A DNA stretch of 57,294 nucleotides, the filler included, from Platydemus manokwari (Eukaryota), in the NCBI GenBank assembly GCA_037951405.1. It is 5 parts of 5 records of this genome, joined end to end, with 100 filler letters (N's around TTAATTAATTAA, not from the genome) between each part and the next. Parts side by side here need not be neighbours in the genome. Positions count along the whole stretch, not along the records: positions 25,597 to 36,561 come from JBBMOY011014414.1; 4 more parts are not named here. One strand, 5' to 3'. The first letter of the stretch is position 1. Every line of letters begins with the position of its first letter. The notes under the pieces are model-generated. The model was not told where the DNA came from. It worked only from the letters and a program-made list of their open reading frames with translations, and made no database searches. Positions 13,601-49,705 of the stretch are shown here, piece after piece. The translations under genes were made by a program, and so were the position numbers.

Positions 13601-13817
13601 TACAACCCATTCAAGGAACAACTGATGGGTTGCATTGATTATTTTTTTTTTGATTTCCTCGATGTAAACTTCATCACCTATGGAAATCAGATATCACAAC
13701 CCTGTAAGAAAAAATTTAATGAAACAATATGCACCGAAAGCCAATGTCAATCCATAATGGCAGAAGAACACCGTCTTAACTGTTCCGGAATGACGGCTCA
13801 GAAATTTTGCTTCAAAG
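10691..13817 (+). CDS. Internal exons of a second laminin-G/EGF-like gene (paralogue B)
   Basis: Phase-1 exons 10691-10924 (IRVTFLISFKDSVGLILYAID, LamG-like N-terminal strands), 10985-11113 and 13494-13817 splice in frame. The last exon aligns along its whole length with 3030-3359 (YPIP..., FLW[IV]GNIGPY.G.NN..Y.PFK.Q..GC, MAE.H.L.CS, QK.C..G). Gene ends are unresolved; a possible upstream exon lies at ~9526-9643. Confidence 0.7.
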
Positions 13818-14714
13818 GTAAACGAATTGATTTTAGAAATATTAAATTTCATAAATCATTGGATCTTGGTTAATATTGATTTATTCGATTATTAGCCTTT
13901 CCTATACTACTTATCATTTACCAATAATAAAATAAATCTCAATTAACACAATACTAAAATATTGAAGTGTTATTCAAGAACAGATGTTATATTAATGGGA
14001 TGAAGATTATTCATCAAAAATTTTACAACATATTTCGCTATATTGATTTTAATTTCTTTTTCTTTTTATATCTTGGCTTTCATCTTTATAACCAAATAAA
14101 TTAGTTTGCCAGTCAAAAGTTCGATTTATTCATTATCCAACTAAATGATAGATGCTTGAAAATCGTTGTGTGATGAAGAAAACATCCTGTCTGCAGTGTA
14201 TCTATTTCCCGTGTCCAATATTCTTCATTCATCAATGATTGGTTATAATAAATTTCATCTGTTGACAATCCCATTAACTTCAGTATTCTTGCGTTACAAT
14301 CATTACTACTATAATAGCCATAATAATACAACTCCGATTTGTGATTGAAACCATTATTGAGTAAAAATAGAAATAGTATATCCTAATATTAATCGACTCA
14401 TGAATAAAATATATCGATTAAATGAGGTATTTGGAAAAATATTATAAAAATGATGAACGAATGCTTGCTAATTATTTTAATCTGGGTCATCGAACTTTAA
14501 ACACTTCAAACCGAAATAGAGAAACCCTGGTTGATTTCGATTTAAAGTCGGTAATATAATCAATGAACTAATAAGGTAACTGTTTTCAAATTCTAAATTA
14601 ATCCTTTGCTATAAAACTAATCTTTTAATTCATTACCTGATATTTCTTATCTAATAAAATAATAAAAATCCCTTTTGTCTGGTATAATGGAATATTTTAA
14701 ATAAGGATTTTGAA

Positions 14715-15143: not shown

Positions 15144-15243
15144 NNNNNNNNNNNNNNNNNNNNNNNNNNNNNNNNNNNNNNNNNNNNTTAATTAATTAAN
15201 NNNNNNNNNNNNNNNNNNNNNNNNNNNNNNNNNNNNNNNNNNN
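15144..15243. other. Artificial contig spacer
   Basis: 44 N + TTAATTAATTAA (stop codons in all six frames) + 44 N. Confidence 0.98.
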
Positions 15244-18595: not shown

Positions 18596-21500
18596 TCATT
18601 TTCTATTATAAGCAGCATAAATGGATTTACTTTGAGCCAACCCGAATGGTCTAAAAAATCAATAATTAATCAATAATTGTCAACAATAATACTTGTTTGA
18701 TGTCAATTTAATTTTGGACAGCAATAATTGACATTCTTTCTCGTCATGACAACCATTATAAGCCTCCATTAACCTGAATGATGAATGGGCGAGATATGAT
18801 TAATATTGATTAATAAACAATAATCAAATCCCACAATCGCGGTACGGCATATTTATCGATCAATGCTCGCGATCGCTCAACCGTTATGCCGTGAATACAA
18901 TTGACATGTTTGGCGAACATTTCCGATATGCGAATTGGTTTTGTCTTCTGGCCAGATTCGGTAAATGAGGCGAACTCGATAGCAGAATATGGGCGAACAA
19001 TGGATGGATCGAATGGATTGAATGAATATTGATCATGGGGAATATCATTGTGATAAACATGAATTGATTTATCCTGAACAATGAATGAGCATGATAAAAT
19101 AATCGATATCATCAGGAAGCAGCTCAATCGAGCCCCCATAAATCATACAGAATAGATTTTACAGATTTTTTTATGAAGCGAGCTCAAATAAGCGATTGTG
19201 TCAGCTGCATTCTCAGTGATTTTGACATCGCAATGATCATGAATCTGGGATAAATAATCAATCAATTGTATATTATGGAATAATAAATGGGTTTCACTTG
19301 GCTGTTAATGATAGCCTGATGAAGAGTGTCAACACTGATGGCGAGATTCTTCATGCCTTTGCATTTCTCGATCAAATAAATGATTCTCGATATTCCTGAT
19401 CGCTTCATTCTCAACTAATGCCACACAACCACACACACACACACATACAGATGAAATATTAATCAATATCAATCGATAAATATCCATTTGATCTACCTTT
19501 TGATCTCTGAATCGATTATCAGTAATGCTTTTAGCGAGATCATCATATCGCTTTCGCTCGACAATCACATCAAGTACAGCCTCACGTCCAACTGAAATAA
19601 AAAAATATCGAAATGAAATCAATGCAGATTAACGAGTTCCCGCTCCCCTCCATAATGGTTAATATTTGATTTGGAACATTTCCACAATGAAACATAAATC
19701 CATTTAAAAGCAACAATTGATTTGGAATGATTTGATTGGATAATATTTGATAAATCATGCTGTGATCAATATCATGTTGTGATCAATATCAAATGAATCA
19801 CCTGTCAATCATATCGATCAAAAATAAATAAATCAGACACCCAATATTTGTCAACAGATTTATCGAAATAATTATTGATTGCACAACAAAATGGATCAAT
19901 ATTTGGCATTGATTGGTGGATAACAATAACGAGGATAATTCCAGTAAATATTGATTGATGGGATAAATTCCATGATGATTGGGACAAGATCATAAAATAT
20001 GCCAACTGATCTAGTGGAACACCACACGCTAAAAAATCTGGAACCAAATAGACGAAATGCTAAATCCGATTCTCGTCCGATTGACGATTATAATTAGCAA
20101 TTTTCTTGGAAAATGTCAAAAATTCTATCCATCGATCCAGCCCGTGTAAATCTCTCGACATTCACCACTGCAATCACAATTGACAGCTTGACACCTCGCC
20201 CAACCACCACATCACACTTTTCCAAATCATGTCACATCGAGAACAGTGCACTTTTATAAATGTATTCGTTTGCATCACATAATTAAAATCACTATAGCAA
20301 CAAATGAAGGTCATTAGCAGACAACTAAACTCGGTTCGTTGTTAAAGCGACACCATGCTCTACTTTAAAATAAAATCTAGTCACCACAGTGTGCAGTTCA
20401 AATCACGAATTATTGTGTAGTTGTGTGTGTATGAGTCACATAGTAACCAATCGATATTTGCATAGTTGGTAAATCGTAATAGAAACCATAATTCAGATCA
20501 AATCCTCACCATTATCCTTTGCTATCCACACGAAATCTCCGATTGGCAAAACACGTGTCTCAAGTTTGACAGCTTTCTTGATCAAATCAGAACACAGATG
20601 TTCCTTCAGTTTCCCCGTCCTGAATGAAATTGAAAAAATAGTTCATCGAGAAGAAACCATTTCAATCCAACCCATAATTCTCGCGATTATCAACGATTAA
20701 GATCACTTCGAATGATCCTGAAGGCATTGTGAATAGAATCTTTGATGATTCGTCGTTACATGAAGAAACTGCCTCGCTATGTATTCGTTGAGGTCGTTGT
20801 TTGAATGCTGATCTCAACTCGTTATCGCTACATCGATTGATCTGGCATTCATTTAATATCGTCAAATTGTCGTCGAGATCATTTGATGGATTTGTTATCT
20901 GTGTCGTTGTGATGTCAGATCTTTTTGACTTCTTCCTCACGATTGGATTGGCTTCGAGAGGTGAAGATCTTTCTGGTGAGAGATGATCCATTTTAATTTC
21001 CCATGGCAAAACGAGAACAATTTTTACTTGTTTCCTCTTGGACAAAGCAACCGAATTCAGGAGCATTCGTGTCGTGAAGAAATGCAAACATGAAATCATC
21101 ATTCAAAAGCCTAGAAATTGATACAAATATTGTATAACGAATGTATAAAATAAATGATTTGGTACAACAAGTGATATGCTGCCAAAATTGTGTGGAAAGT
21201 AGACGGAAAACGAGAAACACATGACATAAATCAAGACGAGTGATTGTTACAGGCAGAAGAACTTACAGAGCATCTAAATCGTGATGATAATCAACATTGG
21301 ACTGAATCAAATCGTCATATTTCACTTTGATTCGATAATATAATTTATGATCAATCATCTTGGATGCAGCATCACATTTTCGGTTGACCATTTCAAGTGT
21401 ATTTGGATCAAGAGATTTACAATAGAAAAATGACAGTCCGTGCGGTTTCATTTGCTTATTTGACTCATTTGTGATCCGATTGACTGCTTCTAGAGTTGTA

Positions 21501-22439
21501 GATGTTTTAACCTTTTCAATATCATGATCACAGGGAACATTGCATCTCTTTTGCAACAATTGATCACACAAGACTTTTCCATAGGATGACAGTCGATATC
21601 TGAAAATATCAAAAATATTTCCTGACTTAATACTTCAGATTACTTAATTCTTTTGAAATTTAATTAAAATTAATTTATAAAATAACCTCTGAAAAACTCA
21701 TTGAAAAATAATTATTTACCTGTTATCAATAACGACGACAATACCATTTTTAACAAGCTTTTTCATATCTTTCCACAATTTCTTTGGATTTGACTTTAAA
21801 ACCAATAATTAATAATCCCAAGAATCATAATAAAGATTACATCGGCTGCCATTTGATAGTATTTTAAAGCATTTGGAATAATATCTTCTTGCGAACCACC
21901 ATTTAGATCATTATTTTGGATCTTAAAAATAAGCATAAACTAATATGTTATTATTAATTGCATACATCATAGAGTCCGAGCATCAGAGAGTAACTTTCTG
22001 ACGATTCTTTAGGTAAGGCAGATCTTTTAGTATTCTAAGAGATTTTTATATTTTAAATATAAAACTACAACAACTTTTGGATTATTTGCAAACTGTTCAT
22101 TCCCTATTTTCAGTGCTTTAGAAACTGAAATTCCCTGATTTTTTGCTAAATCGCTTAGCATTTTATCCAATAAAGCACATGTTTTATCACCAAACCCTTC
22201 CAATATTAAAAAATCTTTACCACTTTTAACTGGAAGAGGGAACATTTTCATTGATTTCAAGGCCTATTATATAATCATAAGAAATATTTTATGCAGTAAT
22301 TTTATACTTTCTTATATGTAAAATAAGATTGGTCCTTATTTTTCTTAGCTTTTTTTGTAATTTCTTCCATCCATGATATAAACAATTTGTTAGGACAAGG
22401 ATCAACTTGTTTCTTTTTATAAATTATATTTTCATTCAT
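18596..22439 (-). CDS. MUS81: Crossover junction endonuclease MUS81, ~14 exons, apparently complete
   Basis: ATG at 22439; N-terminal PCPNKLFISWMEE...ALKSMKMFPLPVKSGKDFLILEGFGDK (HhH). Winged-helix exons at 22034-21966, 21921-21841 and 21793-21720. ERCC4 nuclease motifs VILIVDNRE, LPIGDFVWIA (~20513-20620), IVERKRYDDLAKSITDNRFRDQK (~19497-19592), IIYLIE and QAIINSQ. C-terminal HhH EMFAKHVNCIHGITVERS. Stop TGA at 18596-18598. Confidence 0.96.
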
Positions 22440-22861: not shown

Positions 22862-25400
22862 ATGACAGACGATTCTTCCACAAGAATATATCGCAGAAAA
22901 TATGGTAAATATATATCTTATTTTTAGCATGACTTCCTTGCATGTTCCTAAATTCATATTAAATAGCTTCCAATTTTTGGCCGTGCTTAATTTACCTTTA
23001 TACGAATGGTGCCTTTGAATGTAACTTAATTATCAGGACGATCTTCAGGAATGCACTTACCATACAATTCTATGGAAAGAAAGCATGAACGTCCATTGTC
23101 TTGGATACCCAGTAGTGATTTTTTGAAGAATATTGATGCAGGTAGGTTCTGACACCGATATATTCATTTATTATAATATGTACTTTAAATACCATAAAAT
23201 TGTACTAAATATTCAAACCACATTTCTAACTTTCAGATACACTACTTTATAATTCTGATAGTGTTGAGAAAGTAAAGTCAACTACAAAAAGTTCCGGTCA
23301 AGCAATTCAAAACGAGATGCTACAATCAGTTGGTGGAAAGCTTGCCCAAGAAATTCAAGATGAATTACTTATATGTAAAATATGCCTGGGTAATTATAAA
23401 CAACCAAAAAGTCTTAGTTGCCTTCATACTTTTTGTGCCGAATGTTTGGAAAATCATATTCAAGGTGAAGTTACTTATAAAAAATATAGCGACTACAGGG
23501 AATTTACCTGTCCTCTCTGTCGGAAGCGTACAACATTACCAATTGGAGGTGTGCGAAAATTGCCAGATAATTTTGTTGTTTCAAGTCTTTTTGAAATGAT
23601 CCAAAAAAGAAAATCCTCAACCTCCGATTCCAATGACTTCGAAACCAGAAGTAATTTCTTTTGCCAAATTTGTCACAAAATGGGTAATCGAAAAAGAGAA
23701 GCTCAAACAAAATGTATCGATTGCTCTAAACTATTATGTCGAAGTTGTACTGAAATTCATCGCCAAACTAAAGTTACTCAGCAGCATTCTTTATTTGATC
23801 TTAACATCGAAGATGATGTCATCTGCAAAGTTCATGCTGACGAGCCAGTTAGATTTTTCTGTAAACCTTGTCAAACGTGCATTTGCGTTTTATGTACATT
23901 CAATGAACATAGCGATCATGAAGTCACACAATTTACCGAAGCCGTTACAAAATACAAAACTGATATCGAATCACAATTAATTTCTTGTCAAAAGATTATT
24001 TCCGAATATGAAGATAAGATTTCTAAGATTAATAACGTGAAAACAATAATCGAAACTACAGAGAATCAAATAAGCGATTTAGCCAGTAAACTTGTCGGAG
24101 AGGTATAAATTTATTCATTATTTCTGTGATTATTATGTCGTAAATTTAGACCGTAATAATATTTTAAAATTTAATAATTAAGCAATATATTATTGATTAA
24201 TTGTTGACGAAATTATGCAGAATTCTATTTTTCGAAGCTTATACTATCGTTACATATATTTATATATTTAAAGGCGGTTACAACAACAATATCAAAATCA
24301 GAATAATTCATATGATTGATATGGAGTTTAGACAACATCAGTTGCGGTTTAAACTAAAGCTTTATCAAGTGATAATTTGTCGTTAGTTTTATGACATATC
24401 ATGTTTTGGTATTGATATATGATAATGGATGATTTGGATATATTAACTCATAATAAGTTATGATTAAAAGCAATCAGATTCGTTGATTTCCATTTATTCT
24501 GGACATTACGTCATATATCCTTCCACCTTAATGCTAACCCGACTAGATTTGCTCACTCTATTATCTAAAAATCTTTGAAATTTAATTGATTTAAATTGTG
24601 TTATTTCAGAAAATTCTAGTAAAGAGTGCGTTTGTAATCAAAATATCAACGTACTTATAAAATTACATCATCAATATTTACAAGAAATGATTACACAACT
24701 GGTCACTTAGGACATTTATATTTCTGAATGATTAATTTAAAAAAAACGAGTTTCAGTTTTATGTAATATGTAAATATATTTTAAGTTCGATCTTCAAATT
24801 AAATATTGAAAAGCAGCTTTTAATTCTAACAGTTAATTGGAAAGATGCATATATAGATTTTTGCTTAGCGTCACTAGCTGGTTGATATATGGCAATTGTA
24901 TATTTAGAATTTCTTGACATGCAGACTATTAAAAATCGGTATTGACATTAAAACTGATTATTTCATTTCGTTACCGGAATTTATGTTTGAAGTTATAATA
25001 TTTGCATAATTATTTGATATATGTTGAATAATTTTTACTATTATGATAGATCAAGCAAAAGAAAATTCTATTAATGGAAGAAATTAGAAATGTTTATGGG
25101 TGTGATTTGATAGAAATTGTTTCAAAAAAATCAACAATGGAAAATCAGTTATCGGAACTCAAAAATACATCCAACATGGCAGAGGTGATATTGCAAAGAA
25201 AAGACATCGAATTGCTTTTGTTAAAAAAAGAAATACAAAATAAATTGACAGAAGCGCAAAATTTACCTCAAACCGAATTGCCGATAACTGTTTCCAAGGA
25301 AGTCAAATTTATTCCTGGAATATTCGACTTTGGCAGTCTTCAAGACATGGACAGACCTATGTTGACGAAGCCAAAATGTTTTCGTAGTTTTATCGAGTAA
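22862..25400 (+). CDS. TRIM/RBCC E3 ubiquitin ligase (RING, B-box1, B-box2, coiled coil; TRIM2/3/56-like); 3' end lost at the gap
   Basis: In-frame exons 22862-22904, 23037-23141, 23237-24102 and 25050-~25390. RING CKIC...CLHTFCAEC...CPLC; B-box1 CQIC...CIDC...C..C...H; B-box2 CKVH...FFCKPCQTCICVLC...HSDH; heptad coiled coil follows. Confidence 0.92.
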
Positions 25401-25496: not shown

Positions 25497-25596
25497 NNNN
25501 NNNNNNNNNNNNNNNNNNNNNNNNNNNNNNNNNNNNNNNNTTAATTAATTAANNNNNNNNNNNNNNNNNNNNNNNNNNNNNNNNNNNNNNNNNNNN
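25497..25596. other. Artificial contig spacer
   Basis: 44 N + TTAATTAATTAA + 44 N. Confidence 0.98.
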
Positions 25597-26562
25597 TGTT
25601 ATCACCACTTGCAGAAATCAGATGCGGCATGTCCAGAGATGGATCACTTTGGAATTGACTTGAGGGAAGGATGTTGACATCGGCTCCAGTATCAATCAGG
25701 AAATCGATCTGATAGTTGTTCGATGTGGCAGGAATTGTGAATATTGACGAGATCCATATCGGCTTGCTTGTTCTAGTCTAATTGCCGACGTTACTGGGAG
25801 CCATGACCGTTTCCCTGTGATGTTTTTAGTTTCCAATCGCATGGTGGTCGACATTTCCGTGCATTTTTGCCATATGTCCTGTGGTAAAAACATGTTCTAA
25901 AGTTGTTGCTCTTTCTGCCGTCAGAATGATATTTGTTTCGAATGCTGAGAATCTCGGATTTCAGTTGATCGATGGCCGCCATCCATGGTGGTTGGTAATT
26001 TTCAGCCCATTAGATTGTTCGAGTTGGAGATATTTGTGCAACTCTGTCAGCTATTTGGTCTAGCTCTGTGATGGGTTTGTCTTCGTGTTGTTGGATGTGA
26101 AAAAGCATGCTTCCCTATGAACGCCGTTCGAAGAATATTGGAATTCACATCGACACCGGTTGGATCGATGGCTTTGTTATGTCTGAGAAGAATTTTTAAA
26201 TGGTCTGATGGGCGTCGATCTCAGATGTTTTCCTTGGACAAGAGTCCTTCGATGTGAACCGATGTCGAGAGGCTCCTGCTGTTGATAATGGCCGATCGAA
26301 TATTAGAGTAAGGAGTGGGTGATCCAGTTCGAAGAAGTTCGCGAAATTCTGAGAGGGTCTCGAAGAGAAGATTAGCAACAATGTGCAAGTATTTCGTTTC
26401 TTCTTTTGTGATCCCTGATATCCGGAAAATGGCGTCTGCTTGCTGGAGCCAGGTGTCGGGACGGTCAAAATACTGTGGAAATTTGACGACTACATAGTTG
26501 ATTTCTAGCAAGCCGCTTCTGACACCAATGTAGGATTCGACATTTTTATCTAAGTTGGGCAT
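25597..26562 (-). mobile_element. Ty3/Gypsy retrotransposon, CsRn1-like clade: frameshifted gag plus start of protease
   Basis: Gag N-terminus VVVKFPQYFDRPDTWLQQADAIFRISGITKEETKY; CHCC knuckle CFYHRTYGKNARKCRPPC; slippery heptamer G GGA AAC at 25815-25809; aspartic protease FLIDTGADVNILP at ~25665-25705. Confidence 0.9.
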
Positions 26563-26699
26563 AAAGAGAGAAGACGAGAAAGAAGGAGAGATTTACACTT
26601 TGAAAGCAATTTATTTTTTATTAACATTTGATTTAAACAAATGTGATTTTTAATTAAATATAATTATTATTATAATTAACTGTTACAAATAGATTTTTC

Positions 26700-26758
26700 G
26701 TGTCTTGACTTTTCAGTTCGTTTTTAATGTGTGGATTTTAAAATAGTAGCGGCTAACA
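26700..26758 (+). repeat. LTR 3' end of the dispersed LTR family also at 5390, 54037 and 54246
   Basis: gtgtcttgacttttcagttcg...aatgtgtggattttaaaatagtagcggctaaCA is nearly identical to 54037-54094 and 54246-54282. Confidence 0.7.
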
Positions 26759-27045
26759 ATAATAATGAAATTCATGCAAATATTGAAGTTACCCTGTTAA
26801 AGCAAGTAAAACACCCTGAAATAATTAAAGAAGAAATTGAAGAATGAAATAATTTTAATAATAAATTAAATGATAAACCAAAATTTAAAGTTTTAGATCC
26901 AGTAAGAATTTTTAGATACAAAAATAAATTTGAGAAAAACTATACCACAAAAAATTCAAAAGAAATATTTATTATTAAAGGAGCTTGTAAAACCAAAATA
27001 CTAGAAAATTTTATAGTAATGAGTTGATTAAAACAAAATTTAAGA
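26759..27045 (+). pseudogene. Polinton/Maverick-type integrase, C-terminal relic
   Basis: NNNEIHANIEVT..., DKPKFKVLDPVRIFRYKNKFEKNYTTKNSKEIFII (26872-26976) and, after a frameshift, KFYSNELIK. This matches the Polinton integrase pattern KPKFKVGDxVRISKYKxxFEKGYTPNWSxEIF...GxFYxxEL. Confidence 0.8.
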
Positions 27046-27329
27046 ATAGATAAAAAATATTATATTTTTTCATAATAACAAGAGTTTCACGTGTCAAGCT
27101 GATAATAATGATGAAAACAATAACATTGAAACAAATAAGATTAAAACAAATAAAATTAAATAATATTAAGACAAAAATATTTACTATTATCAAAATATGT
27201 AAAAACTAAACTAAACTAACGAATAAACTGTTTAGTCTATTAATTCCTTGTGATGTTTTTACAGGATCAGATTATGGGTTTAAAATTGGATAAACCCGAT
27301 TTTTCGTTCCTATTTCACCAATTTTTTAT

Positions 27330-27612
27330 TTCATATATTGCATTTCTTGCTTTTATTTGGTCATCTAACATTGATGACAGTCTGTTTCTTTTGCTTTCAT
27401 AATTTAACACATGTATCATCAGATCGTTTCGTATTCTCGCAAACTAAAATATAATAATCAACAATTATTTCAGAAATATATTGAGAGATAAAATTTAATT
27501 TCTCTTCACCAAAAAGATGGTCATTCATCAAAGAATTATTCAGAGTAAGAATAAATCCCATTATTTTCCCATCAAAAATATTGAATCTGTTTTCTAAATT
27601 GCTCTCTGTCAT
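27330..27612 (-). pseudogene. Degenerate ORF, possibly a P-element/THAP9-like transposase C-terminus
   Basis: NSLMNDHLFGEEKLNFISQYISEIIVDYYILVCENTKR; related to the relic at 40-420. Family assignment is tentative. Confidence 0.3.
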
Positions 27613-28658
27613 CTAAAATTAAATTTATAAATCAACACTGAATCATTTTCAAAATTAAATTGTCGACATTTATTTTAGTTGCTATAACAAATAAATATTT
27701 TGTTTATATTGCCATATATATTTAAAATTACTTTAGCAACTTATATTTTATAAAAATAAATTAATAAATTTTTACGATATTATTATTTACTCTGCTTTAT
27801 TATGATTTAATTGTATATATTTTCAATTTATCTCTCAACTATTAACAATAATAATTTAATTATAATTTCTCATTTATTTTCCATTTTTTTGATATCTATA
27901 TCATTAAAATCGTCCGAGTATATCAAAGGTTAATAATAATATTTGTTTTACCGAATCAATATTTTAATAAAAAATTCGAATAAACGATAACTTTTTTGTT
28001 TTGATTTTCTACCATGGCAATTTAGAAACCTTTACGATTATGAAAAATTAATGAGAAATAATAACATACAAACACAGTGAGTGAAATTTTAACATACCTA
28101 CTCAAAATTTCAATATAATTTCATTGTGTGTGATATTAGTTAAACATTTAATTGAACCAGCAAACTTCAAAGGGTTGGTTGACTACGTCAACATGTTGCA
28201 TGTGTAATGGCTTTTGAAGGATTATGTAACGCGGGATTTGTGGGGTTAGAGCCTGGTATTCGTAAATTTTGTGACTTTTGATCTACTGGACTGATTTTAA
28301 TAAATTAAATATCAATCTGGAGGAAATTTAATGGGAAATTTGAAATGAGAACTTATATGTATAAATTTTCAAATTCTCGTAAATTCCATTCGTCAATAAT
28401 ATTCTAACTTTTGTGGAAAATAATTTATAAATTTTGATAACTGGTTTTCAGTCATTTTATTCCGCTCAATTTAAATTTTTTAGTTTGAACCTATTTTTTG
28501 TAGTAATATATTCTTTTCAGAGATTCTCCATTATAATTTCAATTACTAATTAACAATATCCTCCTCAATAATGTATTTTAAAATATTATTAGTTGATTCT
28601 GAAATATATGGAATTATATTTTTATTTTCTGGAGTATATTTAATGAATTTAACAAACT

Positions 28659-28920
28659 TTATAAGATCACTTGTACTATCAGATAAAAAATCCCTTTGTT
28701 ATTAATTAACTCCCCTTCATTGTCTATAGTAGACAAACTTTGTTCGGTGTTTAAAACTGAGATGGGCGTTTTTGAAACTTCTTTATGTTTTGCAATATGC
28801 TTTTTATATTTTTCATGAGCTTTTAAAGCGTAAATGGATTTAAACGTTGAGTTGCAAATCGAACATTTATGCATATTCACTTTTTAAGATTTATTTTTTT
28901 ATGGGTTTTGATTTCATGAT
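28659..28920 (-). pseudogene. C2H2/U1-type zinc-finger ORF relic, probably TE (Polinton)-borne
   Basis: HKCSICNSTFKSIYALKAHEKYKKH; intronless, frameshifted at its start, and located among Polinton relics. Confidence 0.5.
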
Positions 28921-29169
28921 TTTTTAATTTTTGTAATTTTTTAGTTTTTCTAATTTCTGTAATTTCTAAATAATGTATTTTATTCAATATAAAATCATAC
29001 AGTAGTAATATAGATCATAAATCTATTACCTAGTATAAGGCAACGAATGTAACAGTGGGATACGGGGAGAGGCTAAAAAAGAACTTCCACTGAAAAACTC
29101 ACGTACCGAACATTTCATGAAATTCATACAATATCAAGGATAATCCGAAAAATGGAGGTGTTCTGAAAA

Positions 29170-29420
29170 AAGGTATAACTTATGTTGTGTAGCACATTTA
29201 AAGAGAAATTAATCATGGAAACGCAGATATGTTCTCAAGAAATTAATGTAATATATGTTTTAAAAATATGTTAACTAAACATGAAAATCAAAATACAGAG
29301 AGACTGAAGAAAAGATTATTAACAATAATGACAAATAACAATGTGAAAGAATGGCAAGTAAGCATTGAAGAAACAAAACAGGATAAAAGTGGTACAAGAC
29401 AAACACAGAGCGGCATTTAA
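29170..29420 (+). mobile_element. Gypsy pol fragment (RNase H to integrase linker)
   Basis: NHGNADMFSRN*CNIC...LTKHENQNTERLKKRLLTIMT is homologous to NHRNADMLSRNTCTTC...LTKHENQSTGKMKTRILAIMT at 45016-45507. Confidence 0.8.
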
Positions 29421-29429
29421 AAAGGCAAA

Positions 29430-31690
29430 TTTTTTATTTTACAAGAATAAATTATTTGTCAGCTTGAAGTGACTGAAGTGAAAAAATGAATAATTTAAAT
29501 TAAATTTAGAATGGTTATTGGAACAAACATTTTAAAATATTCAACTTTAAATATGATAAATTTAATTTTAAAATATTTTGAAATAATTGCTTGGAATTTT
29601 TTAATTTTTCCAGCTTATGGAAAGTCTTTTGCTTTTTGCCATTTTATTGTCGATTCCAAATTAACCTCTAAAATTTATCTCACTTTCAGTTTTGGTGTTA
29701 TTTTTTAAGTAACGAAACATATTTAAAAATTTATATTTTTTGTAATACGACCAATTTTTAATTTTGTAGGTGAGACGTTCAAACCATATAAATTGTTGGC
29801 ATCAATATATTAAAAAGATAATTTTTTGCACATATTTATTCATGCGTACATTCAACTCTGATTCATATTTAAAGGATCCTTGTTCAATTCCAGGTGTTAC
29901 AAAATTTATTTAAATACATTTTTTTTGGTTTTGTTGGATTGATTTTGCGGTGCTTGAGTCGAAAAGCTTCGATTCGTGAAGTCAGTGGCTAAGTGGAGGC
30001 ATAGACTGTTACAATTTTGCTTTATTCTTTTACTTATCTCTATATTATCATTAGTAAATTTTTGATTTGCTTATAAAAAACATATTTTTCAATTCTAATT
30101 GAAATTCGAAACTGATATTTCTGATACCCAAGTAAAGGATGGACAAAAAAACAATGTTTTGGACAAATATTTTTCTATATTTGTCTCTACTCTTTTCTCT
30201 TTAATCTATCACTGTAAGCATCTTCTTTTAAATACAAAGTTACGTAAACCAATGACGTTTGATAATTACATTTATTCCGATAATTTTGATCTTTTTTTTA
30301 TTTTCATTTGTTATAAAGCTTAACTTTTATCTAATTAGAGCAAGAGAATATTCATTTAATTTTTCAAAAGATGTTATACAATCTTATGCATAAACTCCGT
30401 TTTCATTTATCATTGTATAATTCATATCAAACACCTATTCAGTCAATTTTATCAAATCTTATTACTTCAAAATAAACTAACAAGATTAGGCCTTCTAATC
30501 TTAATGAATCAGTAAACGTTATATATCCATAAATAAATGAAATATGAATTTATTCGGTCAAAAACAATATTTCTATGAACTCATTTCTATGATAATAAGA
30601 AGAAAATCATATTTTGATTCATCATCGAAGTATCAGAAAATTCTTTTGATTTTCTGTCTAAAGTATTACATAATTTGAAAGCTGCACCCCAATGAGTAAT
30701 AGCTCCAGTAGGTAATAGCCATGGTCACAAAAATGTCCTTTATGTTCTGTAAAATTCGATTTATTCTTTAAAAGATTTATTTTTAAATCGGCTCAACGTG
30801 TTTGATATAGTAGTTGCTGTAGATTAACGCATTACAAGCTCTCATCATTTCAACGAATGTTTTTTAATTATTTGTTTTGTCTTGTTTTACTTTTTTTTAC
30901 TTGTTATATGTTTTGAACTATCTTTGGAAAGATTATGAATTGTCCATCATTTGAGATATTTCTAACTCGAACAATTCGAAAAAATGTTGATAATTTTCCA
31001 ATTTATGAAATAATTTATTGATGGCAGCGTTTTTTAGTATCTTGAATAAAGAAATTTAAAATTTCCTCTTTTAATTAGTTATTGTTAACAGTAAAATACT
31101 TCGTTAATTTGACAGCATTGAAACAATGGCGTCATAATAATATTTTAGCAATTTTTAATAAATATTAGAATTGTTTAGAGATTATATAATTAATAAGAAA
31201 ATTAAAAGATAATATATTTTCATATGACCCATTGAGGATATTTTCACGTTATGCAGGTTTTTAATTTTGTAATAAAAAAATGAAACATTAATGATAAATT
31301 CATGAGGATATTCAGTTATTTTCTAATGGCGCCAATACATAAAACACCATAATAATAATTATACAGCTATCCATTCTTAATTAAGCCTAATTATATTTCT
31401 CGAATGAAACTAAGAAAACAATATTATTGACTGTAATTCAAATATTGCACGTAAATATTTGTAATGTGGCTTTTTAATTGAAAGAAATGTTAGTTATCAT
31501 AATTATCCTTGTTGTTTTGTTAATCGAACAACAGCATAAGTAAAGATTAAGCATGAAAAATAGATAACATAATGACTACCAAAATCCTTCATTGATAAAT
31601 ACTGAAAAAGTGGAAACACATAGTTTACTTTAGTAGGATTATTAAACAATTGTAGATTTCACTGGCTACCTCATTGAATAAAAATAGATA
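29430..31690 (-). pseudogene. Polinton/Maverick protein-primed DNA polymerase B, heavily decayed
   Basis: Collinear motifs on the minus strand: GSHY (~31575), DHGYY..TG...WGAA (~30680-30726; cf. DHCHLTGKYRGAAH), YDFLLII, ITFTDSLRL (~30500-30522), NGVYA*DCITSFEKLNE (~30352-30402; cf. KGVYPYDYMDSFEKFNE), YVTLYLKED (~30218-30247), YIDANNLYGL (29780-29810; motif A), ILEVNLE and KDFP*A (~29610-29675). Confidence 0.85.
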
Positions 31691-31998
31691 CAAAGCACAT
31701 TTACGTACTTTTCGACAGATTCTTTGAAATAAATTTGAAAAATTGTTGATTGACAATTTAAAATGTTAAATGTACTGTAAATAAAGATTAATTAGGTCAC
31801 TAAATTGAGGATAAGAATGAACTTTTTGAACTAAAATTAAGTGAATAACTTATCGATCAATAGACAAAATTTATCAACTTTAATTATAAATACTCTATCA
31901 ACCAATAGAATAGTTTCTTTAAGGTATCAACATAAAAAAGCCACTTGAAAGCAAGAGTATATATGCTATTTTTCATTTCTCATTTACCATTATTTAAA

Positions 31999-32909
31999 AT
32001 GTCGAAAATATTTTTAATAATTCTCAATTTATCATTTATTCAATGCAAATTCAACTTTGTTGGCAAAATGGTTTGCGTATTTAATGAATACAGATCAGTG
32101 GAAGCGAGTGACCTTTTCAATTGTGTTATCCAATGTACCTCTAATAATTGTCCCATATTCTATTTTGATGAGGAAAAATTGAAATGTTATTTCTATAGAT
32201 TCAATCAGATTTGTGTATCGAAGAATATCTGTAACTATGTGAAAGCATATTTCAATGATAATTATACCCACGAGGTCTGCTAAATCTTCCTAATTTGTAT
32301 ATAAAACATTTGTATTTTTAGTTCAAGTCTCTAACTCATGCAAGAAATGAGTTATTTAAAGGAGTGGACTATATCATACAATTTAATAGAAGTTATCTAT
32401 TTACAGTCGCACGTGATAGAAAAACGAAAATACTTATAAAATCCAATTTAACTGAAGCACATGTGTTTGCAGGAGTAGGATATTTCAACAACAGCAAACT
32501 AATTGTGTGGTCTGAATATTCATTTATTTCAAAGATGAATAAGTACGACTCGAGTATTCAAATTTTAGCTAATAATTTTGCTTCATATTTAACAAATGGA
32601 AAGTGCACCAGTTATTTCAGTTGTTACCATCCCATAGGTGAGTTTGATAAATTCATCGGTATCGAATATCTCGTATTCGGAGCACTGCCATTGTCTCATT
32701 TTAATGTCTCTCGTTTTATGAAGAATGCCGTCAACCACAAGTGGGGAGCCATTGTTAGTTCAGGAACAATCCACATAATACCCACAAATGAAGTCAGAAT
32801 CCTAATAAGAGAATATGGGTATTGCATAAGTGACAAATTAGGAATAGGAGATTATAAACCATATTATAAGTGTGGCCGACATAAATTTCAAAACTTTACT
32901 TGCAACTGA
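31999..32909 (+). CDS. Secreted protein, ~287 aa: signal peptide, PAN/apple-like Cys module, unknown C-terminal domain; two exons
   Basis: Exon 1 31999-32274 (MSKIFLIILNLSFIQC signal; C...CVIQC...CPIFYFD..KLKCYFY). A 47-nt phase-0 GT-AG intron joins in frame to exon 2, 32322-32909. AATAAA follows at ~32961. No disruptions. Confidence 0.8.
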
Positions 32910-33839
32910 CATCGCTTAAATCAACAATGTAAATTTTCTAGATGTTCATCGCAATATCTTAATAAATTGTTTTGTAATGCCTTAACTGTGCATTTGATTG
33001 ATTCCGGATTTTATATTTTTTAAATTTTATAAAATGAAGCAGGCAATTTTCTCAAGTAGTGAGAATCAATTTTGTGATAAATAATTTTCTGTTTAATTTT
33101 GAGTATCAATAAATGATCAGATTTAAATATTATATAAAAGACTTAGTTAATAAATTATAATTCAAAAATTATATATAATCATTTATATTTCTGTACATCT
33201 TAATAATCTGAAATCATTGCACTAAGCTTAAATGCATTATGTATTTTTAATATAAACTTTTCCGAAATATTTTATTGATTTATTCGTTAATAAATTGTAC
33301 AAGCTACAGTAACATAATAATGCAATCACGAAAAGTTTGAAATAATGCAAGGAATTATTTTTTATTTTAATACCGAAAGCTTTCTATTAATGAGATTTTC
33401 ATAAAACAATTATAAATATATGAAAAAAGAGAACCATATAATGTTGCTATAAATTGCTTTGATATTGAAAAATTTAAACTTGAAAAGTATCGTCATTATT
33501 AGCATAATTTTACAAAGGCTGTCATTCAGCTATGAGGTAAATGATTTTATGTTAATAATTAGCTTTTAAATATGACACATTTTGACACACATACATATAT
33601 ATGGCATTAATAATATTGATAATGTCAATGTGCTATTTTCTATGGAATACACATATGGTGAAAAAATATCCAATGAATTGCAAGTCACAACTTGAATTAA
33701 TCATTAAAAGATGAATTTATGAATAAAGAATTTAACAGTGAAAATAAGATTTTAATAAAATTTAAAACAAAATTTATCTCCACATTTTATACACCAATGG
33801 AACTGTTTAATTATTAAAGTTTGATAAAATAGATCCTTA

Positions 33840-34075
33840 TTAATTGCTAAATATTTTCTTTAAAAGATCTTATTCTGTGAAAGTTTTCTTAAATATCGCT
33901 AATTCCTGAAGATTAGCTTTTACATGCTTATCAGCAATAATATTTTAAATTTCAAAATCTCAACACTATTTCTATAAACTACACAGTACATTTTCTTTGA
34001 ATTTTACTTATTTCGAAAATTTTATTAAATCCATAAATCAATAATCTTGGTTTTTTAGGTAATTCATTATTATTG
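33840..34075 (-). pseudogene. Degenerate repeated ORF of unknown function, homologous to 49722-49997
   Basis: PKKPRLLIYGFNK...IIADKHVKANLQELAIFK versus TTKPRLLIFEFYK...IFPDRPSKSNLLEIIRIE. Confidence 0.45.
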
Positions 34076-34076
34076 A

Positions 34077-34099
34077 TATAATAATAATAATAATAAAAA

Positions 34100-34141
<42 letters not shown>

Positions 34142-34150
34142 TAATAATAT
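34077..34150. repeat. (TAA)n microsatellite
   Basis: Direct inspection; it causes the poly-Tyr run in ORF 33979-34266. Confidence 0.9.
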
Positions 34151-34819
34151 TTCATTTCCATTAAAATATCAATGATAAAGCTTATTCCATTACATAGTAA
34201 TTTTTTACTAATATGATGAACTAAAAATGGAAAACTATAATTTTTGAAAGTGCTATCAATTAACATTTATATAGGTTTTTAATATATTTTTTTCAAAAGT
34301 AAAATTACCTTCAATAGCAGTGTTGGTTACTTAGATGTCATTATATTCCGATAAACAAAATCCATTAATATATTTCAATTTATCATTTATTTTTATATTA
34401 TTTAGCGCATCTTCACTATAAAATGTAGTTTGAGTTGAAAAATAAACACCCGTCATTTTGATTTTTCTCATTTTTCTCATGTTTTTCATTCATTTTTTTC
34501 TTCAATCGGTAATATTTAATTTATTGTTCATCTTTCATAATAGAATAAAAATTTATAAATCTCGTTTAACTTCTCATCGAATTTATTATCTATCTGTTCT
34601 CTTGACTGAATTCTAAAAGATAGAAACACGATCTCTATAAATTCAAGCTCTATCAATATTTTCCTTAGATTTTGTGATTGATGTTTGCTATTTTTAATTA
34701 ATTCAAATCTTTTATTAGATGAATAAAGAGGAATTCTAAAATTATATTAGTTTCAACGATTTCATTTTCTAAATACATTTCAAATCATTCCAGTTGTTTT
34801 CCAATAAATATTTCATGAT

Positions 34820-35086
34820 ATTGTACATTCATTTAATGATTTTTCTGTAACACGATCATCAAATATTTTTAGATTCTTTTTAGTTTTGTTTAAATCGGAA
34901 AAATTCACAATTTTCTCTCATTTACATTTAATAGCTACCGTAATAGTCTTATTACATTGTTGAGAAAATTTATATGAAAACATTTCACAAATTTCTCTAG
35001 TAGTTGACGATTCACCTGATGGGTTATCTTGGTAAACCATTTTCAAATAAATTATATATTCTTCTTTATGTTTTATTAATTTCATA
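34820..35086 (-). pseudogene. Probable Polinton packaging ATPase relic
   Basis: IVNFSDLNKTKKNLKIFDDRVTEKS (34841-34915) resembles the Walker-B region 'LDKxKKNLIIFDD' of Polinton A32-like ATPases. Walker A was not found. Confidence 0.5.
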
Positions 35087-35886
35087 ATCTAGTAAATTTG
35101 AGATAAACAACGCTGTAAAAATTAATTGAGTTTTTTCACGTCCAGATTTTCCTGCAATAATCATTCTGAAAGATCATTGAATACTTAGCTGATGAGTAAA
35201 TAATATTTTATTTTGATACCAAATATTAGTCGATTTTTAATGCCATAAATATGGAAATTTATTTTTGAAATTTGTGTTAGAAATAAAATTTCTAAATATA
35301 ATAAAGCTGAACATGGTAAAAGCAATAGTCGCTTTTTAAAAACTAGTAAGAATAATGGAATGAATAATATAAATCATTTAAATAAGGGTTTAGAGGTTTT
35401 AAAGGTAAATTCCCTTCTGAAGTCCAAAATTCTTTACTCAAAGGAGAAGACTCAAAGTAGCTATTTTTTGGAAGCAAAATACCAAAGCAATAACAAATGC
35501 TAAATTTTTAAAAAAATTTAAAGAAAGAAAATTATTTGATTAAGTTTAAAGATAACTTTTTGAGACCATTAAATGGTTACACAAAAAGTTCAAAAATCAC
35601 TTAATATGATTCCAATAAAGCTTAAACAACTTGTGGAAAGCAAATTTCAGATATTGAATTTTAAACAAAACACCGTGAAATTTGAGTTAATTTTAAAATA
35701 ATTTCTTCTAAACATTTCAATGTAAAATATTAATTAGATATTACTGTAAAAAGTAACTAAATGAGTTATTGATCAGAAGTTGCTCATTTCATTAATTGCA
35801 AAAGATATCATCATTAAATGATAACTTTTCAGTAATTATTTCAAAATATATTTAAAAAAATTTATTATAATGATAGTAAAATATTT

Positions 35887-36561
35887 TTAAATGTTTATTT
35901 GAAATGCTCTAACTGCTAATTTATTTAATGCCAATACATAAGCTCCTACTGACTCATTTTGGCCTTGAAATCTATTTCTAAATGCCTCGGTGTACATTGC
36001 CTGTAAATCTTCCTCCATAACAATTTCTCGTTTCATTGCCTCTTTAATTCCATTATACGGTAAAGGCTGTGCCTGATGGCCTCTTATTAAATTTTTGTAA
36101 ACATCTAACGCGTATCCTCTTAAATGAAAAGGTAATCTAGCCAGTCTCTGTATGTCATTCCATCCGTAGACTTCTGAAGTTGCCTCGTATTCATCAAAAA
36201 AGTCATCAAATTCCTCTGCTTTTCCGGAATATATTTCTATAGTTGGTAATTTAACAACGTTATTTAATCTATTATCTTCCATATTATTTCTATTATAGAC
36301 GTTCCTATTCCTTAATCTATAAATAATTCGATTTTCCAACGCGATTGATTTTAATTAATTATCAACGATTTTTCGCAACAAACAATACTTGTATATCACA
36401 AACGAATTCGAATTTAACGAATTGCACACACAAATTATTTATATTATTTGACGGTTGAGTCCTCACTCGGGGCACCAAATTTATATGTTGGGTTTTGGTA
36501 CTTATATGTTGTTATTCCCAACACCGGTGAGTTCTTTAGATTGATCTGATTTAAATTCAAA
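35887..36561 (-). mobile_element. 5' part of a Ty3/Gypsy element: LTR end, PBS and gag (truncated at 35887)
   Basis: Gag capsid-like YSGKAEEFDDFFDEYEATSEVYGWNDIQRLARLPFHLRGYALDVY...QGQNESVGAYVLALNKLAVRAF, downstream of an 18-nt PBS. Confidence 0.88.
36460..36477 (-). promoter_or_regulatory. Primer-binding site complementary to the 3' end of elongator tRNA-Met
   Basis: Minus strand TGGTGCCCCGAGTGAGGA. The plus strand TCCTCACTCGGGGCACCA differs by one base from the recalled metazoan tRNA-Met(e) 3' end TCCTCACACGGGGCACCA. Confidence 0.75.
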
Positions 36562-36661
36562 NNNNNNNNNNNNNNNNNNNNNNNNNNNNNNNNNNNNNNN
36601 NNNNNTTAATTAATTAANNNNNNNNNNNNNNNNNNNNNNNNNNNNNNNNNNNNNNNNNNNN
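36562..36661. other. Artificial contig spacer
   Basis: 44 N + TTAATTAATTAA + 44 N. Confidence 0.98.
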
Positions 36662-44099: not shown

Positions 44100-45523
44100 C
44101 TTTATAAATACAAATAATAAATATGTTTTTATGTAATCATTTAAAAATATTTTTTTAAGTATAAATCATAATTTTATTTGAATTATAAACCCCGCATCCC
44201 CCTTTTTTAAAAATCTTTGATTTTCTCAATATTTCTTGTTATTACTGCTCCCTTTCCACTTTGTAATCGCTAGCTTCTCTCATGGTTCCTCCCAATCACT
44301 TCATATGGCCCTTCATATCTTCCCTGATCCTTATTCCTCATCTCTTTCTTTATTAGTACCTTATCTCCTTTGAATTTACGTTTAGTTGTTGCCTTTCCAA
44401 CGTTATTTTATTTTATTTTCATATTCTTCTCTAAATCGTCTCTGTCTATTCTACTATTCACTTGCCACTGTAATCTGTCTATCTTTTTTCCCGAATATGA
44501 TTTCTGCTTGACTAACCTTAATGGTTTTTGTATTGTCACATTCGTGTTTTGTCTTTCCTTTATCGTCGCGTTTATGTAATCCCTAATCGTTCGAAATTGT
44601 CATCCAATGATTTCATTAGTGCTGTGATGATAAGGGCTTGAGAATATCAACTACGTTCCTATTATGAAAGCCCTATTTTTTATTCTCTGTGATTCGAAAC
44701 ATTTTTCACAATCTTCATGTATTTTCTTCGTTGCTCCGTACTTTAATACCCATTGATTCTGAATCACTCTTTCTATTGTTTCCTCGTTTTGTTCATGTAT
44801 GGGTGCTAGTATTATGTATCTACTGAACTGGTCAATTATCCCAAGCATATATTTTTCTCCTCTATTTGTTTCTTTCAACGGCCCGCAAATGTTGCTATAC
44901 ATATTTTCTCGAATGGCTATCTCCGTTGCATTGACTTTGATTTTTCCTTCGTTTTTAGTTTTTTGGCATGCTTCACACAGACTTATAACGTCTTTGATTT
45001 TCTTTCCCATGCCTTTTATATAGAAATTTTTTTTATAAATTGTGTGACCTTTTCCCTTCCTACTTGACACAACAATTTGTGCGATTGTTTTTCATCTTTT
45101 CTCTGCTGGTGTCCAATTTCTTTAGTTTTTATCATGTCTCTGTCCAGCATGAAATTACTACTTCGCGTATGACATATTCCTCTTTTTATCATTTCTATCT
45201 CATCGTTGTTGATCTTCCATTCTTTTCCTTTGTTCTCTGTCATTATTGCTAATATTCTGGTCTTCATTTTTCCTGTACTCTGGTTCTCATGTTTCGTTAG
45301 ACGTTGGGAACATGTCGTACAGGTATTCCTTGAGAGCATATCTGCATTTCTATGATTAGCATCTTTTCTGAAGATCGTGTTTATGTCCAGGCTACTTAGA
45401 TAATTTAGCCATGTTTGGAATTGTGGAGCTTTGTCTTTAGCATGAATGTGTGTGAATCTTTTCCTGTGAAAATAGTCATTGAAATGCTGACAGAAGTAAT
45501 ATATCACTAGTAATTCCTTCCTG
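44100..45523 (-). mobile_element. Ty3/Gypsy pol 3' half (RNase H, integrase, GPY/F), PPT and start of the 3' LTR; frameshifted
   Basis: RKELLVIYYFCQHF; NADMLSR; zinc finger HKLLC...CEACQKTK; ICGPLKET...YMLGIIDQFSRY; SSPYHHSTN; EGPYEVIG (~44293-44316); PPT AAAAAAGGGGGA (44208-44197) followed by TG at 44196-44195. Confidence 0.92.
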
Positions 45524-46229
45524 ACGAGTTCACTAAAATTGGAAGTATTTATTACAATCTATTATAATAATTGTTATCAATGAACCATAACACTGGATCT
45601 TTCACAAAACGAACACGGGTAACTATTAAAATGATCAACTTACTATTAATTGATATTATTGCTCATATAATGACGTCATTAGTTATAACTTCGACTCGAT
45701 ATCGACTATTACAGCCTGTTTTATTGAAAAAAGTAAGGAAAGTTAAAGGTAGAAATCACATATTTAAGTAACCTCCAACTGTGTATGAGAAAGTTGAACC
45801 AGTACAATAAAGGAAACCACGAGTCAAGACCACCTAGTCAATTTATCAATTACCTCAAATTCAAGATTACTAGAATCGATTACGGATTCTGACTACCACT
45901 TTCATTATAAACACTGAAACCAAGGAAATGAAAGATCAAGTAAGAGTAAAGTTAATAGTCATTCACATCTATCTCATCTATTTCCACCACTTTTGTCTTG
46001 TTAATATTTTGCAAAAATTAATGACAGAAACGACTTGCAGGTAACAGTCCACCACCATGCATACCTTAAATGATTATTTATATTTATATTGTGGTAAACT
46101 TATTAATACTTTTTTACATATCATTATGCTGTTACAGCACTATATACATCTGTGCCCCCCAATTATAATTAATTTTTATTTTTTAAATAACCAAATATCC
46201 AATGTTCAGAATTATCTCAAATCCGAGAA

Positions 46230-47784: not shown

Positions 47785-47884
47785 NNNNNNNNNNNNNNNN
47801 NNNNNNNNNNNNNNNNNNNNNNNNNNNNTTAATTAATTAANNNNNNNNNNNNNNNNNNNNNNNNNNNNNNNNNNNNNNNNNNNN
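47785..47884. other. Artificial contig spacer
   Basis: 44 N + TTAATTAATTAA + 44 N. Confidence 0.98.
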
Positions 47885-49705
47885 ACATTGAATGAAGCAA
47901 ATGGCTGGACAAAGGCATAACGATTTCAAAGGTTGTCAATGTATTTAAAATCATACGCGTTGCAAACATTTCAAGGATTGGATTTTAGTGAGATTAAAAG
48001 TTATGAGAATTTATTTCAAGAATTAGAAAACAAATTAGTTATGCAGGATGGTGTACATGTATTTTATGTAAAGCAATTTAATGATAGATATAAAATGTCT
48101 GGAGACAGTGTTAAAGAATATTCAGTGGTATTAACAGAATTGGTAATTAATGCTTATGGCAAATATGTATCTGCAGAGGGCTGAGAGCAAATGGTTATAG
48201 ATCAATTTAAAAGGGAAATTATACCCATATGAAGACGTCCGAGATCATTACCAGAAAATAAAAATTTTGATGGATTAGTGCAAAAAAGCAGGAGAGTCGA
48301 AATGATTTATGGATCAAATAATTTGTCAATTCATAATATAGGTTATGAGATACCAGGAAATTATCCATTAATTAGTGGGGTAACATTTAAGGAAGATACA
48401 AATGGGACATCGACTACCAGTAAAAATAATATAGTAACTAAAGATGATGAGAAAAGTCCAGATATGAATGTGACATGGGAACAATTAAATAAAGTATTAA
48501 CACAATTTCAAATTAAAGATGACAATGTTAAGCAAAGCAAAACATATGATAATGGGAATTACTTTGATAGGAATAGGAGTTATGATAATTACAATTATGG
48601 TCCACGAGGATTTGGTAGAGACAATAGAAATAATTTCAATACTACAGAAAATTTCAATATTTGAGGATTTTATAATATAAATAATGGTAGAGGATTTAAT
48701 AGTAGATTCAATCAAAATAGGGGATATGATAATATAATAATTACATAATAAAGAAAATATTAGAAGTAAAAGTCCATAAGACAGAAAAAAGAATAGTAGG
48801 GGATTTCGTGGAAAAAGCAGAAAGAGAACAACAAAAAGAATTAAATAAATTAGTAAAAGAAAAAGAAGAGTTACAAAAGAAATTAGAGGATTTAAGATAT
48901 AAATCGGAAGATTACAATGGGGAATCACGATAGAGAGAAGAAGATGACAATAGAGAATTAAGATATATAGAAATAGACCATGATTCTAGTAGAGAAATGG
49001 ATAATGATAAAATAAGGAGAACGGAGTAGAGAGATATTAGAAATGATGATCAATAATATAAAAGAAGAAATAAGAATAATAGAAATGATGATAGGGATAA
49101 TAGAAATAATGACCAATATAACAGAAGAGAAAATAAAGAGAAATAATGAGGATGAAGTAGAAAATATTAGACAGGTATTAAGAAGAAATTCATATGTTAA
49201 TCCAAGTGAAGAATAAGAAAATATGTTAATACAAGAATGCAGCTGTGGATTATACTCATGCAGTGAAATAATTGGACCATGTTTAATGGAAACAAAAATG
49301 GGGGGGGTGGGAAAGGAAAATTTTTGTACAAAGAAGGAGGGGAATAATATTAGTTGTTTTTAAATCAAAATCTGTTTTTAATGGTAATCCGCCCAAAAAT
49401 GTTCTAAAATAACTTGAGATAATTAATAATCTCTCTCTCTCTCTCTATATATATATATGATATAGTTTTGGGGAATTTTATAATAGTGAGAAGAATAATA
49501 TTGGGGTCGGTTGTAATTTTGCTTATGAATTTAAATTTCCTCGAGGGCCTGTGGACAATACACTGAGATTTAGTTTTATGTTTCTTGTTCAATATGTTAG
49601 TGGAAAAGGAAGTTGTATTGGAATAAAAAATAGGACAATTTTTCTGGATAATAATCATGGAACAGAATTTATATGTATTGATAGTTGTTTTTATCCTTAC
49701 CTACG
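47885..49705 (+). mobile_element. Gypsy-type gag with a long R/N/D/G-rich tail, then PPT and putative 3' LTR; no pol
   Basis: EANGWTKA*RFQRLSMYLKSYALQTF...GDSVKEYSVVLTELVINAY is homologous to the gag at 35887-36339. Low-complexity tail at 48560-49200; purine tract aagaaggaggggaa at ~49331-49344; LTR-like segment with (CT)n(AT)n and AATAAA to ~49705. Confidence 0.75.

Follow-up and report, generated by a model that had tools for sequence, protein, structure and literature searches.

A 57,294-nt stretch of Platydemus manokwari DNA (assembly GCA_037951405.1), hereafter the window, is made up of five contigs with 100-nt N linkers between them, and its third contig (JBBMOY011014414.1; 25597-36561) holds broken genes of a Polinton (Maverick), a virus-like transposon, alongside an undisrupted gene near 32 kb whose product is predicted to be secreted (the 32-kb gene). 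The contrast between the decayed Polinton relics and this intact two-exon gene with a PAN domain is real. The reading we favor, to which we give about an even chance, is that the gene is a host paralogue copied at the DNA level that lies within or beside a dead Polinton. The protein is the more solid new result: it appears to belong to a family of secreted animal proteins, at least 28 in number and divergent, in which a PAN domain is joined to a free-standing domain resembling the N-terminal region of the bacterial O-glycopeptidase IMPa. A preliminary description of the window had placed all of these pieces on one contig, which is borne out, as all of them lie within 25597-36561. The base composition of the window is that of AT-rich animal-type DNA (20-38% GC per kb).

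Broken Polinton genes on the third contig

Scans of stop-read frames (six frames) against Pfam and PHROGs returned no Polinton gene because the relics are too broken, and a protein-database search with one polymerase frame gave no match. As these searches were blank, Polinton references were taken from 68 loci in genome contigs, picked by a motif of the polymerase relic. Of these loci, 62 belong to one Polinton-like (polymerase) protein cluster, and in two Pfam supports ATPase, integrase and capsid genes (Pox_A32, rve + chromo, DJR). Since the references were chosen by that motif, the polymerase match at the motif is partly circular. Many bacterial and archaeal genome bins contain Polinton-like contigs (e.g. 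L038:153-11275, L056:7073-18138 and L005:139-11212), some carrying the full set of polymerase, integrase, ATPase, capsids and protease; such contigs are probably host or viral contamination.

The best match to the protein-primed DNA polymerase B (pPolB) in a profile search of the window fell at 29815-29570 (independent E-value [iE] 7.6e-5, against 2.8 for the best reversed control). Frameshift-aware scoring resolved two collinear blocks, 29809-29618 and 30726-30128, each of which beat 60/60 local shuffles, and 100/100 in a second scoring scheme. The upstream block, 30726-30128, does not contain the motif used for selection and is thus the independent support for the polymerase. For 15/21 single references the best match lay in register at the relic, and the top reference (L055) scored 49 bits over 30546-29633, with shuffles reaching at most 26 (three shuffles each). 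The preliminary description had drawn a polymerase relic of ~2.3 kb on the minus strand at 29.4-31.7 kb; 30726-29618, about half of that length, holds up, whereas the claimed 5' part from 30.73 to 31.7 kb does not. Read as polymerase, the stretch 30.73-32.0 kb is at chance level (p 0.24-0.43, and p 0.26-0.92 in a second test), and the C-terminal third was not found left of 29.6 kb (p 0.62). Verified polymerase similarity ends 1.27 kb (1273 nt) before the ATG of the 32-kb gene, and not ~300 bp from it as had been thought.

The integrase relic placed at 26.8-27.0 kb on the plus strand is confirmed as a broken Polinton integrase, but only its C-terminal part is present (26869-27041): it covers only the region behind the catalytic core, and the core is absent. 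All three reference integrases score 40-43 bits there, compared with shuffle maxima of 24-26. At the ATPase relic placed at 34.8-35.1 kb on the minus strand, 35191-34840 is the probable first half of a Polinton packaging ATPase. Four of six references find their best match there (z 4.4, 2.8, 2.6 and 0.0) and 0/100 and 0/500 local shuffles reached its score, but in profile tests run across the whole contig or window it is not distinguishable from controls. It has no match in Pfam or PHROGs, and its second half was not found beside it (p 0.81).

The search for other Polinton hallmarks was negative. Traces of capsid, protease and PZ were at chance level, with 7/180 region tests above 20 shuffles against ~8.6 expected. 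A frameshift-aware Polinton search of 25597-36561, which had been proposed as a check, yields integrase, the middle of the polymerase and probably half an ATPase, but no capsid or protease above chance. The capsid and protease genes may have been lost, have decayed or lie beyond the contig. No Polinton-type terminal inverted repeat (TIR) or target-site duplication (TSD) was found in the contig, where the only candidate is a 70-nt inverted pair of ambiguous polarity; the true ends may lie beyond gaps. A zinc-finger open reading frame (ORF) described as disrupted does carry a C2H2 finger, below the Pfam cut-off, but is open over 71 codons, and such an ORF is not diagnostic of Polintons. In their pPolB, integrase and probable A32-like ATPase the relics resemble group-1 (pPolB1-type) animal Polintons/Mavericks. 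Unlike these, the contig has no detected capsid, protease, TIR ≥100 bp or TSD, retains ~1.7 kb of recognisable coding relic, and has its relics interleaved with pieces of Gypsy. Animal Mavericks are mostly degraded fossils, according to the accessible part of one report (PMC8097293).

An open two-exon gene with PAN-like and IMPa-N-like domains

The gene at 31999-32909 is undisrupted, as had been described: it has 287 open codons in two exons around a GT..AG intron, a signal-peptide-like start and a PAN-like domain. A 195-codon frame arose in 0/300 shuffles of the region. With breaks as dense as in the relic, a frame of 864 nt would have a probability of 8e-5 of remaining open, or 3e-3 at a cautious rate; the gene is therefore under selection or else far younger than the relics. 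TATA-like and AATAAA words occur near the gene, as expected by chance in such AT-rich DNA, and its splicing and expression are presumed from the sequence.

Exon 1 appears to carry a PAN/apple domain, as its cysteine core and modeled apple fold suggest. Its atlas score to PAN_1 clusters is 0.95, and 29/30 of the matches fall in the PAN_1 set. In a Foldseek search with the exon-1 model (predicted local distance difference test [pLDDT] 65), PAN/apple structures head the list, each of them a weak match (best E 0.12), and Pfam did not detect the domain. Exon 1 is like small secreted PAN/apple proteins (PAN_1; the HGF N domain; the Sarcocystis lectin SML-2) in cysteine pattern, predicted fold and language-model features, but differs from them in falling below Pfam detection and in having a partner domain unlike PAN architectures in the libraries searched.

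That partner, encoded by exon 2, is modeled with a pLDDT of 86 and matches residues 78-365 of IMPa (5kdv; Z 12.9, root-mean-square deviation 3.9, 180 residues aligned). The match stands apart, the next of 48161 chains having a Z of 3.6, and over 5kdv and 7jtv together it ranges from Z 12.7 to 12.9 with 170-180 residues aligned (Foldseek E 9e-5). The likeness to the N-terminal region of Pseudomonas aeruginosa IMPa (the PF18650 region) is one of fold: exon 2 differs in having only 7-8% identity, in lacking the M60 catalytic domain and HExxH, and in having a PAN domain as its fusion partner within a family of animal genes. At E 0.1 the Pfam model PF18650 matched 0/21 family members, and a family profile found no match among PDB sequences. 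The HExxH zinc motif occurs in neither exon nor in any of P0001-P0029; with neither this motif nor a catalytic domain, the protein would not be classed as an M60-like O-glycopeptidase. Animal TCAF/FAM115 proteins carry a similar N-terminal region. In IMPa this region binds O-glycopeptide at an exosite, as given in the accessible portions of two reports (10.1101/2021.09.09.459412; PMC10550946). Since two binding-type folds are found with no catalytic motif, the protein might be secreted and bind, without enzymatic action, O-glycosylated proteins (mucins, for example) in mucus or cuticle, a tentative proposal that we put a little below an even chance; a common fold at 7% identity does not show mucin-type glycoprotein binding. 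An atlas lead for exon 2 as a sialyltransferase (0.87) was dropped, being below the trust level of the tool and contradicted by the fold. The same fold is present in a 983-residue viral protein model in BFVD (A0A811A963; E 3e-5), which may be an M60-type peptidase with an N-terminal region of the same kind.

A search with exon 2 matched 24 proteins, seven of them with E <1e-10, while a word-based search with exon 2 gave no match. One match, P0021 (1324 aa, with repeats), was dropped as a chance match; the remaining 23, with five from a further search, define a family of 28. The relatives are 24-39% identical to the 32-kb gene, and none exceeds 39%. P0005 matches both exons in order (E 2e-11 for exon 1), and 18/20 aligned relatives begin at or after the start of exon 2. 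These two observations suggest that the intron is common to most relatives and, with it, that duplication occurred at the DNA level. In a tree of 26 rows, from which P0009, P0018 and P0029 (<110 aa) were left out, the gene has a terminal branch of 1.25 changes per site and is grouped with P0002 and P0004 (100/98). The seven relatives with source data lie on contigs of 864-3150 nt. With no near-identical relatives and an apparently common intron, the 32-kb gene looks like part of a long-established, divergent host family, which sets it apart from nematode Maverick cargo, where copies are nearly identical and sit next to a TIR. No family member was found in the 68 Polinton-like loci, a weak point because those loci come from other hosts. 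In the literature searched, mostly outside subscription papers, no description of a PAN and IMPa-N-like pair and no tie between PAN genes and Polintons came up.

Origins of the gene among the relics

The ATPase and polymerase relics lie on the same strand, 4.1 kb apart, and flank the gene on either side. This layout would favor a single element with something placed inside it over unrelated scraps. In 17/19 reference polymerases more than 1273 nt would be needed upstream of the verified block, which is space taken by the gene, and the layout is therefore not that of an undisturbed element. Under the host-copy reading, a group-1 Polinton would have inserted, died and lost most of its genes, and Gypsy elements would afterwards have cut into the area. 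A copy of a host-family gene, made at the DNA level with its intron, would then have come to lie between the remains of ATPase and polymerase, probably with loss or displacement of the polymerase 5' end, and would have stayed open through host selection or because it is much younger than the relics. Both this order of events and the assignment of ATPase and polymerase to one element are inferred.

The preliminary description had offered a host copy inserted into the fossil as one of two options, and it remains the best reading, but several points weigh against it. Neither an insertion junction nor a TSD of the gene was found, and looking beyond the gene did not recover the polymerase 5' end (one test gave p 0.03 with negligible effect). 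Later deletion alone could explain the short spacing between polymerase and gene, and the missing close relatives may only reflect the absence of this genome and its relatives from the protein sets. Polymerase, gene and ATPase are, moreover, all bracketed by the 70-nt inverted pair. Finally, the hint of an ATPase split by the gene does not reach significance. A look-alike of the missing ATPase second half lies across the gene at 31800-31670 on the minus strand (p 0.02 locally), and 31798-31673 is the best ATPase hidden Markov model (HMM) match in the window (iE 0.12). The look-alike was reached by 86/1000 shuffles, and by 0/300 and 5/300 for two of 11 references; its E is 0.31 among 1524 pieces, like that of reversed controls, and 5-40 of 40 contig-wide shuffles reached it. 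With contig-wide tests not significant and no shared junction word, an ATPase whose halves are parted by a 3-kb insertion with the gene was kept as a lead only.

Three Gypsy fragments (25597-26758, 29202-29411 and 35900-36561), absent from the preliminary description, cut through the region. The integrase relic begins where a Gypsy long terminal repeat (LTR) ends (26758), and that Gypsy insertion is therefore later than the integrase. At least three Gypsy pieces interleaved with the relics would also suit a gene long resident at this spot, with unrelated Polinton and Gypsy fragments piled up on either side. We regard this as somewhat unlikely. It would account for the integrase being on the opposite strand, with a Gypsy fragment and a repeat arm lying between it and the polymerase, for the long branch of the gene in the tree, and for best references that differ between relics (L055, L045 and L035 for the polymerase; L038, L056 and L005 for the integrase and ATPase) and are all distant. 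It accords poorly with the single strand and plausible spacing of ATPase and polymerase, and with three Polinton core genes lying within 8.4 kb when the other contigs of the window (46 kb) have no Polinton trace.

The other option in the preliminary description was that the gene is cargo of an active Polinton, kept by the host after the element died. The wasp proteases and krma kinases of nematode Mavericks are the known parallel. In the accessible part of the nematode report (10.1101/2022.07.12.499685), cargo occupies a 2-5 kb slot with the left TIR on one side and the integrase on the other, its identity can exceed 95% between species, 47/235 WASP genes are found no more than 6 kb from Maverick genes, and intron-bearing secreted cargo is documented in pseudogenised Mavericks. 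The 32-kb gene shares with such cargo a host-type, intron-bearing structure and a place within 6 kb of core genes, here with core-gene relics on both sides, and its coding GC is 29-33% against 20-26% in the flanks, although other coding DNA here shows the same. The likeness is by analogy only. The gene is internal, between ATPase and polymerase relics and 5 kb from the integrase, and not in the TIR-adjacent slot (a slot documented in nematodes only). No near-identical relative was found in the protein sets, the best being at 24-39% identity; no Polinton-type TIR or TSD was found, and in 17/19 references there is no room for a whole polymerase. The cargo claim thus found no positive support, and we hold this origin to be quite unlikely.

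The 70-nt inverted pair (29522-29591 and 35831-35899) is real but unexplained. Its arms are 83% identical and score 68.9 bits, whereas none of 180 shuffles exceeded 47.3. Similarity of the right-hand Gypsy gag to other gag stops at the codon adjoining 35899, the outer end of the right arm. One might suppose that the 6.4-kb block 29522-35899, with its polymerase part, gene and ATPase part, moved as a non-autonomous composite ended by this pair, an idea in keeping with a pair so far above chance, with outer ends that meet cut Gypsy sequences (exactly so at the gag) and with polymerase similarity that ends beside the left arm. We consider it very improbable. No TSD is present at the pair in either polarity, and the flanking Gypsy pieces are on opposite strands and from different genes, and are therefore not halves of a single target. 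At 70 nt the arms fall short of Polinton TIRs, which measure 100-1500 bp in the accessible part of one report (10.1101/2023.08.22.554363). Only the inner ends of the pair (AGTAAT, AGCAAT) resemble the Maverick-like end motif AGTAGT given in the accessible part of another (PMC8097293), in which case the gene would fall outside a pair of separate element ends.

A Polinton lineage could also have captured an intron-bearing secreted PAN and IMPa-N-like gene, with a shortened derivative bounded by the 70-nt pair spreading copies through the host genome and seeding part of a large undescribed family that was retained by the host once the elements had died; we find this distinctly doubtful. If it were true, cargo capture would gain both a new class of gene and a new location within the element. 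Were cargo capture as such established, it would add a second example, nematode wasp/krma being the first, in which a virus-like transposon seeded a secreted gene family that was retained. The earlier suggestion that either option would tie the transposon to how the gene family spread does not follow, because a single insertion into a dead element carries no information on spread. Returning to the host-copy reading, the arrangement is most likely an ordinary juxtaposition in a graveyard of mobile DNA, and it has little consequence for transposon biology as things stand, dead Polintons, like host genes in graveyards of repeats, being common. The points worth following are the undescribed protein family and the unexplained inverted pair.

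An intact single-exon ORF of ~267 codons at 55066-55866 on the minus strand, with a hydrophobic start and no Pfam match, is apparently a secreted orphan. It adjoins Gypsy relics with no Polinton trace and was counted for the host-copy reading; as a paralogue of the 32-kb gene it was rejected (E 2.6).

Gypsy elements and other features of the window

Table 1. Features of the third contig, in window coordinates.
Feature	Position	Strand	Evidence and remarks
Gypsy-type LTR retrotransposon, gag and protease start	25597..26528	-	Pfam DUF7041 E 6.6e-11; runs off contig
Probable 5' LTR of that Gypsy element (TG...CA)	26529..26758	-	Sequence; outer end cuts integrase relic
Polinton integrase relic, C-terminal part only, broken	26869..27041	+	tblastn E 2.2e-4; HMM iE 0.0012; 3/3 references z 8-12
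Open 71-codon ORF with one C2H2 finger	28659..28874	-	Pfam zf-C2H2_6 E 9.2e-5, below cut-off; translation
Gypsy pol fragment between finger ORF and polymerase relic	29202..29411	+	74% over 145 nt to Gypsy 45217-45358; tblastx E 7e-15
Left arm, 70-nt inverted pair	29522..29591	.	Polymerase similarity ends 27 nt away
Group-1 pPolB relic, middle third	29618..30726	-	~9 frameshifts and 3 stops
Stretch claimed as polymerase 5' part	30727..31800	-	Polymerase p 0.24-0.43; weak ATPase second-half look-alike inside at 31800-31670
Exon 1, hydrophobic signal-peptide-like start and PAN-like domain	31999..32274	+	Hydropathy 2.79 at residues 4-14
Presumed 47-nt intron, GT..AG, phase 0	32275..32321	+	Longest open splice of 17 candidates; P0005 collinear with both exons
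Exon 2, 195-residue domain outside Pfam	32322..32909	+	IMPa N-terminal-like fold, without HExxH
Broken relic, probably of an A32-like packaging ATPase, from Walker A to shortly beyond Walker B	34840..35191	-	Local tests
Right arm, 70-nt inverted pair	35831..35899	.	Outer end cuts Gypsy gag
Second Gypsy-type element, LTR end and truncated gag	35900..36561	-	Pfam Retrotrans_gag E 5e-4, below cut-off

The first Gypsy element has at 26527 a motif that we take to be primer-binding-site-like, and the second has one at 36477. Partial copies of the LTR end at 26650-26758 (77-95%) are found at 53982-54092, 54246-54282 (the same end) and 5339-5424; this repeat was ruled out as a Polinton TIR, as it ends a Gypsy LTR. 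The gag of 35900-36561 matches a gag at 47.9-48.2 kb (E 5e-13). More Gypsy pol/gag relics lie at 44651-45558 (-), 47900-49300 (+) and 51137-51500, along with a 170-nt direct duplication. A further inverted pair on the third contig, 27864-27930/28274-28340, scores 40 bits, inside the shuffle range, and an Rfam scan of the contig gave no match.

The linkers (15144-15243, 25497-25596, 36562-36661 and 47785-47884) are N runs around a six-frame stop word, and long inverted and direct repeats reported at these positions are artefacts of the 100-nt assembly linkers. The contigs that adjoin the third in the window, which need not be its neighbors in the genome, hold host genes and many Gypsy relics. 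Among the host genes are a multi-exon RING/B-box TRIM gene at 23230-25400 (+), identified by Pfam, and a multi-exon gene at 18810-21634 (-), presumably encoding a Mus81-like nuclease. Two related exons without a Pfam match, 2939-3364 and 13451-13873 (+; 70% over 118 nt), resemble what we take to be laminin-G-type repeats of one large gene. An inverted pair of 86 nt at 8348-8432/8815-8900 (76% identity, 380 nt between the arms) is possibly a small miniature inverted-repeat transposable element.

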